From the NCBI RefSeq assembly GCF_000026545.1, contig NC_011601.1: DNA of 64,000 nt. One strand, given 5' to 3'. The stretch is from Escherichia coli O127:H6 str. E2348/69. Its GTDB lineage: Bacteria > Pseudomonadota > Gammaproteobacteria > Enterobacterales > Enterobacteriaceae. Under the pieces are notes generated by a model. It did not search any database, was not told where the DNA came from, and saw nothing but the letters and a program-made list of their open reading frames with translations. How positions within the stretch are numbered: position 1 is the stretch's first letter; every line of letters begins with the position of its first letter. Of this stretch, positions 1 through 64,000 are shown in pieces. Both the position numbers and the translations under genes were made by a program.

Positions 1-342
1 TCTGTTGGGCTATTGACCTTACGTTTCTGGCTACGTTATCAGAAGCATCCACAGGCATTTGCTCGCTGGACGCGCATCGTGCCGCCGGTTGTCGATACGC
101 TGTTATTGTTAAGCGGCATTGCGTTGATGGCTAAAGCGCACATCCTGCCATTTTCCGGGCAGGCACAGTGGCTGACTGAAAAGCTGTTTGGAGTTATCAT
201 TTATATCGTTTTGGGTTTTATTGCACTCGATTATCGTCGTATGCACAGTCAGCAGGCGCGCATTATTGCCTTCCCGCTGGCGTTGGTGGTTCTGTACATC
301 ATCATTAAACTCGCCACCACAAAAGTACCGTTACTGGGGTAA
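1..342 (+). CDS. sirB2: SirB2/YchQ-family inner membrane protein, 5' end truncated by window edge
   Basis: ORF is open to position 1 in frame; hydrophobic membrane protein; sits upstream of sirB1-kdsA as in E. coli. Confidence 0.6.
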   Translation, partial: SVGLLTLRFWLRYQKHPQAFARWTRIVPPVVDTLLLLSGIALMAKAHILPFSGQAQWLTEKLFGVIIYIVLGFIALDYRRMHSQQARIIAFPLALVVLYIIIKLATTKVPLLG

Positions 343-60809: not shown

Positions 60810-61331
60810 ATGGGAATAACTAAAGAACGATTGTTGGAAATAGCAAACCTTAGTGATTGGGCATTAAGTGATGAGAGAATTGTTTCTCCTCATGCTTATG
60901 AGTCAGTTACAAGTATAGAAATAACAACAATGGCTAGAATGCTGCTTGGTTATTTCAAAATAGAAAATAAAAAACAGATGGATAGTAATGTTGATATATG
61001 TGAGATTTTAGACGATTGGGGGGCTTGGGTTGTGGCTGGTAATAGTTCTATTGATTGGCAGGAAATAGCTGATAAATATAAAAATGTTGTTCCTCATGGT
61101 AAAAAATCACGTCGTCAGTGCAGCAATGATGAAGGGCGAATTATTGACATTAGTATCCTTAGGTTAGAAAGATATAAGCAACAAGAATATGAGTTAATTG
61201 TTGCTCATTTCGTGATTGGTTTATCTCTTCGTGCTATTGCAAAGCAACAAGGATGTTCAGATGGAACAATTCGTAAAAGATTGCAAAAAGCCTTAGGTTT
61301 TTTGACTGGATATATAGCAATTACCAGTTAA
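60810..61331 (+). CDS. Q: Late-gene antitermination protein Q (933W/H-19B-type Q family)
   Basis: Matches recalled 933W-type Q: WGAW, SRRQCSNDEG, and C-terminal HTH GLSLRAIAKQQGCSDGTIRKRLQKALGFL. Confidence 0.75.
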   Translation: MGITKERLLEIANLSDWALSDERIVSPHAYESVTSIEITTMARMLLGYFKIENKKQMDSNVDICEILDDWGAWVVAGNSSIDWQEIADKYKNVVPHGKKSRRQCSNDEGRIIDISILRLERYKQQEYELIVAHFVIGLSLRAIAKQQGCSDGTIRKRLQKALGFLTGYIAITS

Positions 61332-61969
61332 GAGTCAGCGGTTTTTTTACCAGTGTAATGGTATAAGGATACTCCCATGTGTCTTACATGATATGGAAGC
61401 GCTGTTGCTGGATGCTTTGTGATACTCTTAAAGCGGAGGGGAGAGCCTTCCGCTTCAATTTCTGCGTCCGAAACGGTCGTAGAGAAAAATTCTTTCCATT
61501 CATTGAATTTTACTGCTGATTTGTCAGACTTTATATAAATTAGAATTCCTCCATGATCGTCACGTGACGTACCCGTGCCGTAACGTTCGGTTAGCTGAAT
61601 CCAGCCATTATGAATAGATTTGGGGCCTCTCCATAATTTTGCTTCACCGATCCATTCGAATTTTCCGAATTGATGTTTAACTAATAAATCAACGTGACCG
61701 CCATGTTGAGTATCATGTTCAACATCATAAAACCTACCTTTCAGGAAATTTTTGATCGACGCTGTTAGCTCGTCCTCTCCCCACTTAGCATCTTGATAGA
61801 AGTGTTTGTCATTTTCTAAATTCTGAATAGCGTCGTCTAAATCTTCATAGAGTTGCTTTACAAAAATATTTTTGTCTGCAGCTAATTTTCTTTGAACCAT
61901 TCCCCTAAATTCAGGATCCATTCTAATTAATGATTGAAGGTCTGCAGTACAGATGTTTACATCACTCAT
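61328..61969 (-). CDS. Cassette gene C: predicted PD-(D/E)xK-like nuclease (213 aa)
   Basis: ATG 61969 overlaps stop of gene B; motif GEDE...HVDLLV...EWIGEAK (E, D, ExK spacing typical of restriction-endonuclease fold); AT-rich. Confidence 0.6.
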   Translation of the reverse strand: MSDVNICTADLQSLIRMDPEFRGMVQRKLAADKNIFVKQLYEDLDDAIQNLENDKHFYQDAKWGEDELTASIKNFLKGRFYDVEHDTQHGGHVDLLVKHQFGKFEWIGEAKLWRGPKSIHNGWIQLTERYGTGTSRDDHGGILIYIKSDKSAVKFNEWKEFFSTTVSDAEIEAEGSPLRFKSITKHPATALPYHVRHMGVSLYHYTGKKTADS

Positions 61970-62390
61970 GCAGACTCTCCAAAAGACTCGAAGGAGTAAA
62001 GTATGGATAAAGATACTGGCTAAAATTATCAACCAATTCGCCAGTTTCTGGATGGTAAAAACTTCCTGTGTCTAAAGCATAGGAAATAAGATCATCTTCA
62101 ACTGGTATTGGTTCTTCCGTTAAATTATCAATGTATTGAAAATGCATATCCAATAGATGTGCTTTATAGCTAGATAAATAATCAGTTGCTTTTATTAGCA
62201 GGATATAGCCATCTTTCGTATCAGTTAGATAGGTTAAACCATTGATAAGGGTTTTGTATGTAAAGTGATTGATATTTTTAGCATCTTTACTAACCAGAAA
62301 AAGAAAAAGATCACGACACACACTGCGAACAGGATCATTAAAATCCTGCTCTATTTGCGTGATAATGTCGTGATATATACTCTTTTTCAT
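61962..62390 (-). CDS. Cassette gene B: hypothetical protein (142 aa)
   Basis: ATG overlaps stop of gene A (ATGA); no recognised motif; AT-rich. Confidence 0.6.
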   Translation of the reverse strand: MKKSIYHDIITQIEQDFNDPVRSVCRDLFLFLVSKDAKNINHFTYKTLINGLTYLTDTKDGYILLIKATDYLSSYKAHLLDMHFQYIDNLTEEPIPVEDDLISYALDTGSFYHPETGELVDNFSQYLYPYFTPSSLLESLHE

Positions 62391-63478
62391 TTATGGCCTG
62401 ATGATCTCGCTCTTCTTTTCTCTTCACAGGACTTAACAGAATCCAATATTTTTTCAACAATAAATATAATCGAATCAATGTTGTTACAGTTCTTCGCAAT
62501 TGCTTCATGCAACCTAATTCTAGGATTATCAAGCATTGTCCTTTTTCCTGGTAATATTAACTCTACTGATAAAATATGTGAAGAACTTTGTGGTAAATCC
62601 CAAATTTTTCCCAACTTAAACTTTGTCAATATTGGGCTTGCGGACTCTCCACTATGATGGTAAACATCTTGACGCAAACACTTTTGACTTGGTTTGAGTT
62701 TTAAAGAACTTGTATTGCCATCTGAGGTGATAAAAGATACATGAGAAATTCTGCCATCTACTTTTTCGTAAAGATCTTGTATTGAACCAAATAATTCAAG
62801 AGGATTGTTTAAAATAACGCCAGCTTCTTTTTTTATAAATTTAGCCACAAGGTATTGTTGAGGCTGTGATTCACTTCTTGGAAGGATAGATAAATCAATC
62901 GTAAGAATTAATATTTTTTCTGCAGGCATTAGCATGATGGTATTAAAGCATTGCGTGACTTGGCGTGTTTTGCATTTTATTTCTCCACCATTAGCACGTA
63001 ATTCCATACCCGCATCGCTAAGATGTGTTGGGTCAAGCTCTATCACTTCAGTGTAATACGCTTTGGATAAAAAAACAGCAGTGTCAATTTGTTTATCACG
63101 AATGATATCTTGACGTAGTTCAGCAAAATGCAGCTCAGTATCAGCAACTAACAGCTCCTCTCTGGATAAAGGAATTGGGTATTTTTCTGAGAAGGGGCTA
63201 TTGTCCTTTTTCTGATTTGTGAAAATTGTTTGTAATTTTGCTACGTCTTCATCGGTGATTCTATAAATAGAAAGTAATCGATTCCCGCTAAAAATTAAAC
63301 CTTTCCAGAAATCGTCGATTCTGTCTTTTAGGTCGGGATTATGCTGAACTACACTATTTACACGTTCAATAAAAAGGGGTAATCCTTGGGCCGTTACACC
63401 CAGTGATGAACCAAGAAGCTTACGGGTGTTGCGCCAGCCAAAGCGTGAATTGATGTTTTTTACTGTTTGCTCAAGCAT
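62387..63478 (-). CDS. Cassette gene A: hypothetical protein (363 aa)
   Basis: ATG 63478 preceded by AAGGAAG; no Walker A or other motif recognised; AT-rich. Confidence 0.6.
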   Translation of the reverse strand: MLEQTVKNINSRFGWRNTRKLLGSSLGVTAQGLPLFIERVNSVVQHNPDLKDRIDDFWKGLIFSGNRLLSIYRITDEDVAKLQTIFTNQKKDNSPFSEKYPIPLSREELLVADTELHFAELRQDIIRDKQIDTAVFLSKAYYTEVIELDPTHLSDAGMELRANGGEIKCKTRQVTQCFNTIMLMPAEKILILTIDLSILPRSESQPQQYLVAKFIKKEAGVILNNPLELFGSIQDLYEKVDGRISHVSFITSDGNTSSLKLKPSQKCLRQDVYHHSGESASPILTKFKLGKIWDLPQSSSHILSVELILPGKRTMLDNPRIRLHEAIAKNCNNIDSIIFIVEKILDSVKSCEEKRRARSSGHK

Positions 63479-63824
63479 TAACACTTCCTTAATTTTCCCT
63501 TAACAATTTAGGGTGCTAAACTTTTTTGCGCAGTTTACATAAAAAAATAGTGCGTACGCAAAAACTATCTAACATGATGAGCTTTAACCGGGAAATTTGT
63601 ATATGTTGTGAGCATAAAGTTGGCTGAGAAATCTAAAACGGGTAGAATGACTGCGGGTGCTTGAGGCTATCTGTCTCAGGCATGAACACCAAAAGGCAGA
63701 TAGAGAAAAGCCCCAGTTAACATTACGCGTCCGGCAAGACGCTTAACATTAATCTGAGGCCATATCTATGCTCTACACACGTAGGTTAGCCTCTTACGTG
63801 CCGAAAGGCAAGGAGAAGCAGGCT

Positions 63825-63980
63825 ATGAAGCAGCAAAAGGCGATGTTAATCGCCCTGATCGTCATCTGTTTAACCGTCATAATGACGGCACTGGTAACGA
63901 GGAAAGACCTCTGCGAGGTACGAATCCGAACCGGCCAGACGGAGGTCGCTGTCTTCACAGCTTACGAACCTGAGGAGTAA
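63825..63980 (+). CDS. hokD: Hok/Gef-family type I toxin (HokD/RelF-like)
   Basis: 51 aa MKQQKAMLIALIVICLTVIMTALVTRKDLCEVRIRTGQTEVAVFTAYEPEE; in-frame upstream extension from 63768 (mok-like). Confidence 0.9.
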   Translation: MKQQKAMLIALIVICLTVIMTALVTRKDLCEVRIRTGQTEVAVFTAYEPEE

Positions 63981-64000
63981 GAGACCAGGCGGGGGAGAAT

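Follow-up and report, generated by a model that had tools for sequence, protein, structure and literature searches.

Here we analyse a short intergenic region of Escherichia coli O127:H6 strain E2348/69, an enteropathogenic E. coli (EPEC), that separates a cassette of three hypothetical genes from the small gene hok inside a lambdoid prophage. The region fills positions 63479-63824 of the window, by which we mean the whole stretch of 64,000 nucleotides that was analysed. These 346 bp are probably a recombination mosaic in which three pieces meet: the control region of a hok/sok locus, a truncated late promoter of the PR' type that belongs to a nearby antiterminator gene (Q1 hereafter), and a minus-strand promoter for the cassette. 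At the centre of the late-promoter piece lies a perfect 10-bp palindrome, TGCGTACGCA, which we read as the Q-binding element (QBE) of that promoter, because the variant of the palindrome matches the class of the Q protein and because the layout around it superimposes on PR' of phage 21. A preliminary description of the region had taken the same bases as part of a larger inverted repeat that could be an operator for a regulator encoded outside the cassette. The palindrome does resemble a site of that kind, whereas the two-arm repeat is not a unit and only the palindrome in its right arm is conserved.

A palindrome that varies with the Q antiterminator

The palindrome is part of a module of about 75 bp that recurs in 46 non-identical sequences from Enterobacterales prophages. 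In all of them it is conserved as GCG-N2-3-CGC at a fixed distance of exactly 16 nt from TGWTAAGAGTGGT, with a terminator and lysis genes beyond. The module is read in the late direction because the terminators and lysis genes that lie downstream of it in the relatives fix its orientation, and in that direction the full order is an A-tract, the palindrome (GCGTACGC or GCGG(T/A)CCGC), exactly 16 nt, TG(T/A)TAAGAGTGGT, about 25 conserved bases, one or two intrinsic terminators and a holin gene. The two elements of the window on which the argument turns are the following.

63551-63560, no strand: candidate QBE of Q1, the palindrome TGCGTACGCA with core GCGTACGC, at -26 to -19, the position of the phage 21 QBE.
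60975-61331, plus strand: Q1, a gene for an antiterminator of the Q21 family (Pfam PF06530, 9e-32; PHROG 79 'anti-termination protein Q-like', 2e-34; Q21 structures 6p18/6jnx, E = 6e-4).

One genome per species was scanned with the pattern CGCAA-N14-TGWTAAGAGTGGT, its spacer held fixed, and 39 loci were returned. Of these, 37 were judged genuine, from Yersinia, Serratia, Rahnella, Pantoea, Citrobacter, Kosakonia, Xenorhabdus and others, and two (L065 and L073) were judged to be chance matches. A looser pattern run against IMG/VR, CCGCAAAA-N8-14-TAAGAGTGG, was rejected, all 15 of its matches being chance occurrences inside unrelated sequence. A hidden Markov model of Q proteins located the Q gene in 35 of the scan loci. 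Five of these carry no cargo, the palindrome following the Q stop codon at 8-18 nt, and one cargo-free locus continues from the module to a terminator and then to holin-like and lysozyme genes; in about 30 the interval holds 470-2860 bp of reverse-oriented open reading frames of very varied size. The Q gene is thus either directly adjacent or, as in the window, separated from the module by nothing but reverse-oriented cargo. The phages mEp390, cdtI and SfII likewise carry the module between unrelated reverse-oriented genes and the holin gene, and Yersinia loci that contain the cassette and have no Q gene have no module either. On these arrangements the module belongs to Q and not to the cassette. 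The preliminary description had looked for the repeat in related prophages that carry the same cassette; the palindrome does not travel with the cassette, being absent from the Yersinia copies and present beside unrelated cargo and even where cargo is lacking. A limited search of the literature on the motif and on quuD, ybcQ and essD found no description of the module.

The palindrome changes in step with the protein. In 36 of 36 loci its variant pairs with the class of the Q helix-turn-helix, six classes against six variants:

SLRxIAK..CSDGxxRK: palindrome GCGTACGC, 17 loci, including the window.
SKRxIAK..DEKxIRIE: palindrome GCGGNCCGC (in one locus TCGGTCCGC), 12 loci.
LSEGMIRIK: palindrome GCGTTACGC, 2 loci.
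VSEGLIRQQ: palindrome GCGCTACGC, 2 loci.
TNEREVRHR: palindrome GCGACCCGC, 2 loci.
CSDGYIGKR (QuuD): palindrome ACGTACGT, 1 locus.

The geometry points the same way. In the phage 21 record OL657228 the -35 TTGACA lies 7 nt after the Q stop codon, the QBE covers -27 to -12, the -10 is AACACT, the start is an A, and the sigma-dependent pause element TAAGCTG at +2 to +8 is soon followed by a terminator. With the start placed at the W of TGW in the 46 sequences, TAAGAGT falls at +2 to +8, a TATTGT-like hexamer at -12 to -7, and the A-tract and palindrome at -27 to -13, so that the palindrome would stand where a Q-specific element belongs, between the -35 and -10 positions. The two systems (for phage 21 see Yin et al. 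bioRxiv 10.1101/651190; Shi et al. PMC6606751; OL657228) share the Pfam family PF06530 of their Q proteins, a beginning a few bases after the Q stop codon, an element at about -27 to -12, a TAAG-type, -10-like pause at +2 to +8 (TAAGCTG there, TAAGAGT here), and then a close intrinsic terminator and lysis genes. They differ in that the phage 21 element is a direct repeat of TGAGCA and that of the module a palindrome, GCG-N2-3-CGC; in that phage 21 has TTGACA and the module no consensus -35; in the length of Q, 162 amino acids (aa) against 115-147; and in the reverse-oriented cargo that usually lies between the Q gene and the promoter of the module. The window differs further in that pause element, terminator and late genes are all missing from it. 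In intact relatives, the palindrome would be bound by Q, which would then load onto the RNA polymerase that pauses at +2 to +8 and let it pass the terminator.

Q1 is placed in the Q21 family by PF06530 and by its similarity to the solved Q21 structure. It also matches Sigma70_r4_2 (1.6e-5) and is 58% identical to the Q protein of a Salmonella relative (L004). PF06530 has been assigned to the Q21/Q933W family, with a fold like that of sigma region 4 (Yin et al. bioRxiv 10.1101/651190), and members of the Q21 family bind DNA by means of a helix-turn-helix of that type. RefSeq starts Q1 at 60810 (173 aa, annotated 'antiterminator Q family protein'); its relatives of 115-147 aa align from the ATG at 60975, which gives 118 aa, and from this alignment the first 55 codons of the RefSeq version may lie outside the real protein.

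The closest well-known counterpart is the K-12 prophage DLP12. Its module (L080, 6180-6290) reads TACGTACGTA, 16 nt, TGTTAAGAGTGG and then a terminator and the holin gene, and lies between nmpC, in reverse orientation, and essD. The architecture (quuD, nmpC in reverse, essD-rrrD-rzpD) is that of the module loci, with the nmpC porin gene as a reverse-oriented moron between Q and module; the palindrome variant and the Q class are different ones, and the DLP12 module is intact whereas that of the window is truncated. In K-12 the intact module stands upstream of essD, and its variant TACGTACGTA pairs with the distinct helix-turn-helix of QuuD. According to a statement in PMC7918800, given there from earlier work, the DLP12 lysis operon depends on a Q-type antiterminator.

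A probable truncated late promoter and a candidate cassette promoter

In E2348/69 the module has lost its downstream half and shares its remaining bases with a promoter that points the other way.

63541-63576, plus strand: truncated PR'-type module with A-tract, palindrome, AAAAA and a -10 region with a 1-nt deletion (TATC-T / TAACAT).
63532-63561, minus strand: candidate cassette promoter with -35 TTGCGT (63561 to 63556, within the palindrome), 18-nt spacer, -10 TAAACT (63537 to 63532) and start near 63525.
63479-63522, minus strand: 5' untranslated region of the first cassette gene, with Shine-Dalgarno AAGGAAG (63490 to 63484) 5 nt before the ATG (63478 to 63476), from the sequence, the open reading frame and the RefSeq coding-sequence coordinates.
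63577-63619, no strand: junction segment between the promoter remnant and the hok promoter, found only in cassette-bearing E. coli.

Local alignment to the Salmonella relatives L004 and L005 scores 61 against a null of 24 +/- 4 and spans about 63522-63581. The homology ends inside TGWTAAGAG, where the window reads TGATGAGCT. The pause element TAAGAGTGGT, invariant in the relatives, is not present in the window, which has TGAGCTTTAA in its place; a check of the local sequence found no TAAGAGTGG near the module, no terminator-like site lies at 63580-63655, and the gene that follows is hok and not a holin gene. Compared with its relatives, the late promoter is truncated just before its start site and joined to a hok-nin-Q2 segment. 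The truncation would leave Q1 with no loading site here, the module being no longer able to serve Q loading, and the prophage would rely on a second Q gene downstream. That second gene (L001, 11546-12235) encodes 229 aa unrelated to Q1 and lies upstream of tRNAs and lysis genes. The prophage is a mosaic that carries two antiterminator genes, of which Q1 appears to be the orphan.

On the minus strand, TTGCGT-18-TAAACT most probably drives the cassette, to judge by its recurrence. It matches the consensus at 7 of 12 positions and is the same in the Salmonella relatives, and the leader it would produce is 47 nt long and carries the Shine-Dalgarno AAGGAAG. When recurrence is defined as a hexamer with A2 and T6 and at least 4 of 6 consensus bases at 16-18 nt from TTGCG(T/G), 20 of the 47 related loci have a promoter in the cargo direction, the background being 8.8%. 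The preliminary description had placed a cassette promoter in this region, which is very probably right given this recurrence of TTGCG[T/G]-16..18-TAnnnT. It had also paired the cassette with hok as divergent genes, and there the picture is different: the divergent partner of the cassette promoter is the PR' remnant of the Q gene, and hok has a promoter of its own 60-100 bp further right. A cassette-direction promoter with CTCTTAACA as its -35 was rejected, as there is no -10 at the proper distance. The predicted starts of the cassette promoter and the late promoter are about 53 bp apart, so that the two would compete and a Q protein on the palindrome would occupy the -35 of the cargo promoter; Q1 bound there would thus compete with the cassette promoter.

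A 74-nt stretch that includes the junction segment (63572-63645) is found solely in 12 E. coli genomes, all of which bear the cassette. The segment was tried as a diverged late region with two deletions and as diverged hok upstream DNA; the alignments were not significant, including those of 63577-63619 to the hok upstream regions of 933W, mEp460 and Rac-SA53.

The inverted repeat and other readings of the palindrome

The repeat that first drew attention to the region is present, as had been described.

63523-63564, no strand: inverted repeat with arms TTTTTGCG (63523-63530) and CGCAAAAA (63557-63564), perfectly complementary over 8 bp, gap 26 nt.

Its right arm overlaps the 10-bp palindrome, and its significance was judged against 2000 shuffled, dinucleotide-preserving versions of 63479-63824. 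A perfect inverted repeat of 8 bp with a gap of 3-40 nt arose on average 0.25 times per shuffle and at least once in 18% of them (P about 0.18), a 10-bp palindrome 0.40 times and at least once in 32%, and the window as a whole holds 104 comparable inverted repeats and 46 comparable palindromes. Folded as RNA, the two strands of the repeat had z = -0.2 and -0.5, no significant hairpin, and a hairpin or terminator at the site was rejected. Sites of the host regulators PurR and TyrR were considered on a resemblance of half-sites seen by eye only and were dropped for wrong spacing and an unconserved left arm. As it was described, the inverted repeat is for the most part a product of chance, and its two arms are not one unit.

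We therefore think it very improbable that the arms form one operator through which a dimeric or looping regulator encoded elsewhere controls the cassette promoter. Their perfect complementarity, and the way in which they flank the -35 and the start predicted for the candidate cassette promoter, would suit such a regulator, but chance alone predicts a repeat of this sort, a gap of 26 nt would be uncommon in a dimer site, and none of the relatives compared has the left arm. At its position the window has TTTTTGCGCAG where the closest relative (75% amino-acid identity) has TTTCTG---AG, and a 99.3%-identical E. coli copy in strain STEC367 has CTTCTTTGCG, a T-to-C change in the left arm that leaves the palindrome unaltered. 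In related loci the two half-sites are not kept together, the left one being absent or mutated and the whole element missing from the Yersinia cassette copies. A recombination or insertion target, comparable to the core of a site-specific recombination site and marking the place where cargo enters, is barely credible as an account of the palindrome itself. The cargo is invariably placed in the short interval, a few bases long, that separates the Q stop codon from the element, yet it carries no recombinase, no second copy of the site stands at its opposite boundary, the swapping of cargo can be put down to homologous exchange between its two conserved flanks, Q gene and module, and the match to the Q helix-turn-helix would be left unexplained.

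Two other readings have somewhat more in their favour. The palindrome could be merely the -35 (TTGCGT or TTGCGG) of the cargo promoter, not bound by Q at all, with its match to the Q class a product of linkage and common descent. The enrichment of TTGCG[T/G] with TAnnnT at 16-18 nt fits this, as does the direct repeat of the known Q21 element. We still judge it improbable, for a -35 requires just one half of the palindrome, whereas symmetric variants (GCGTACGC, GCGGTCCGC, ACGTACGT) are kept in the five loci with neither cargo nor such a promoter; moreover, TGWTAAGAG stands at an invariant distance on the other side, and Q and the element stay paired across many differing cargos. Somewhat less improbable, but still unlikely, is that the remnant is inert debris in E2348/69, with Q1 no longer acting there and the cassette served by some other weak promoter such as TAGATA-16-TATTTT or TTAGCA-16-GAAAAT. 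The truncated module, the 1-nt deletion in its -10, several minus-strand candidates that score 7-8 of 12, and the second Q gene upstream of the lysis genes of the prophage would all accord with debris; but all 13 E. coli copies have an unbroken Q1 reading frame, annotated as such, the palindrome fits the class of Q1 perfectly, and only TTGCGT-18-TAAACT is common to the Salmonella relatives. Our preferred reading, a Q-binding element that overlaps the cassette promoter, has weaknesses of its own. The known Q21 element is not a palindrome, the module has no recognisable -35, and its -10 is ambiguous between the TATTGT-like hexamer at -12 to -7 and an invariant TAnnnT five bases downstream, the second of which would move the start site and give TAAGAGT another role. 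The perfect match of Q class and palindrome could come in part from linkage and shared ancestry, and Q binding is deduced by comparing sequences. The cassette promoter scores only 7 of 12, other minus-strand candidates are equally weak, and loci of subtype B often have a poor equivalent. Finally, neither the genome search nor alignment to hok upstream DNA accounts for 63577-63619.

The hok/sok region, the cassette and the cargo slot

Everything from 63620 to 63825 has the features of a standard hok/sok control region, a member of a known family: a Hok/Gef peptide of about 50 aa, a mok frame, a structured leader, and a predicted antisense Sok RNA with promoter, tail and terminator hairpin.

63620-63648, plus strand: hok promoter with -35 TTGGCT (63620-63625), 17 nt, -10 TAGAAT (63643-63648) and start about 63655; 9 of 12 in a consensus scan.
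63655-63830, plus strand: hok mRNA 5' leader, from the 5' end GGGUGCUUGAGG to the hok AUG; Rfam RF01794, full model, 117.1 bits against a gathering score of 59, E = 3.4e-27.
63768-63980 and 63825-63980, plus strand: mok and hok (51 aa) frames from the list of open reading frames, in frame with each other and sharing their end; hokD in RefSeq.
63705-63775, minus strand: Sok antisense RNA gene, to whose coordinates the sokW feature of phage 933W maps.
63783-63811, minus strand: predicted Sok promoter with -35 TTGCCT (63811 to 63806), 17 nt and -10 TAACCT (63788 to 63783), fitting the 5' end of sokW in 933W.

This first piece of the mosaic holds the promoter and the hok/mok leader of hok, with the Sok antisense gene convergent to them and under a predicted promoter of its own. 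The -10 of hok ends 6 nt before the GGGUGC 5' end of the leader, and in 933W, mEp460 and Rac-SA53 the -35 (TTTGCG, TTGGCG and TTGGCA, respectively) and the -10 occupy identical columns with a differing spacer; megablast homology begins only at about 63642 because that spacer has diverged. The leader is about 95% identical to hokD and hokW loci and has matches in 4937 of 5426 E. coli genomes. The Rfam family RF01794 is named 'sok', but its match is to the hok-sense strand and stops at the hok AUG; the strand it reports is therefore that of the hok leader and not of the Sok RNA. Hok itself matches Pfam HOK_GEF PF01848 (1.8e-23, 82 bits against a cut-off of 22), and the overlapping mok frame starts in the leader and ends with hok, as it is annotated in 933W and Rac-SA53. 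The predicted fold of 63776 to 63700 begins with a single-stranded 5' tail, after which come a long hairpin and a U-run (-31.8 kcal/mol, z = -4.65). The Sok promoter candidate resembles that of plasmid R1. Both the hok leader and the antisense Sok RNA, which the preliminary description had expected here, were thus borne out by the covariance-model match, the mapping of sokW and the fold. With the hok/sok locus of R1 and the hokW/mokW/sokW locus of 933W (hokD family) the window shares the PF01848 peptide, the mok frame, the RF01794 leader and an antisense Sok with a promoter, and DNA identity to 933W is about 94% over 63642-64000; there is no substantive difference, and only the DNA upstream of the -35 is lineage-specific. 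The 3' fold-back-inhibition element of such loci, which pairs with the mRNA 5' end, would lie past 64000, where the window stops. The distance of roughly 290 bp that had been given from cassette to hok is that from the cassette start to the mok start at 63768, the hok ATG at 63825 being 346 bp away.

Around this region, 63300-64000 is identical to 2722718-2723418 of NZ_CP059840.2 (E. coli E2348/69, EPEC O127:H6). From left to right the window carries Q1 on the plus strand, the three hypothetical genes on the minus strand, the first of which starts at 63478, and hokD (63825-63980); beyond its end follow DUF968, rusA, the second Q gene, tRNAs and lysis genes.

61328-63478, minus strand: cassette of three genes (363, 142 and about 213 aa), flanked by Q1 and the promoter remnant; PHROGs 12777, 11490 and 9664, function unassigned.

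No cassette protein has a Pfam hit above the curated cut-off, and PADLOC gave only a weak match to PDC-S54 (E = 0.0016). The third protein shows by eye a D...E-A-K motif (HVDLLV...EWIGEAK) reminiscent of PD-(D/E)xK nucleases. The cassette occurs in 13 of 5426 E. coli genomes, always with more than 99% identity; in one of the 13 copies (E. coli ETEC1746, L002, 4708-5900) an IS1A disrupts the first gene and removes the intergenic region together with hok. Relatives of the 363-aa protein in Salmonella, Kosakonia, Erwinia, Pantoea and other E. coli (49-75% amino-acid identity) have the three genes in the same arrangement, the 3' end of the cassette adjoining a convergent PF06530 Q gene and the 5' end facing holin and lysis genes. 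Two Yersinia loci (L014 and L015, 3800-4000) carry the cassette outside lambdoid prophages, beside a 2753-aa protein with MuF/LPD domains, and their upstream region is a different one, with a consensus TATAAT and no palindrome.

At other loci the slot often holds a defence system, and cargo proteins there match defence families: PD-Lambda-5_A (1.5e-164), PDC-S20 (1.4e-175), TIR-TM (1.6e-57) and PDC-S33 (5.5e-13). Since homologues of PD-Lambda-5, PDC-S20, PDC-S33 and TIR-TM occupy the same place elsewhere, the E2348/69 cassette is by analogy a plausible candidate defence system. A fixed slot in the backbone with swappable cargo is also what characterises the defence hotspots of P2 and P4 (Rousset et al. 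PMC9122126) and the systems of prophages (Vassallo et al. PMC9519451). The Q slot differs from the P2/P4 hotspots in lying between the Q stop codon and PR' in lambdoid prophages, in cargo that is always antisense to late transcription, and in a cargo promoter that overlaps the putative Q site. A limited literature search found no description of a hotspot between Q and PR'.

As an inverted-repeat operator the finding is ordinary, and its hok/sok part was already known; its interest lies in the module, which is common to many Enterobacterales prophages, including DLP12 of K-12, SfII, cdtI and mEp390, and whose palindrome varies in step with the Q helix. From it the Q-binding sites of a large branch of the Q21 family that has received little study can be predicted in testable form, the DLP12 module of K-12 being a convenient test system, and it marks the precise insertion point of reverse-oriented cargo, several examples of which match known or candidate anti-phage systems. 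The EPEC prophage, for its part, is a mosaic in which one Q gene is orphaned and half of a late promoter is left. More tentatively, a large Q21 subgroup (QuuD-like, 115-147 aa) may read a two-fold palindrome that doubles as the -35 of the cargo, so that Q would switch the late genes on and the defence cargo off at the start of the lytic phase; in E2348/69, where pause element and terminator have been lost, Q1 and its site would then remain as a dedicated regulator of the cassette.

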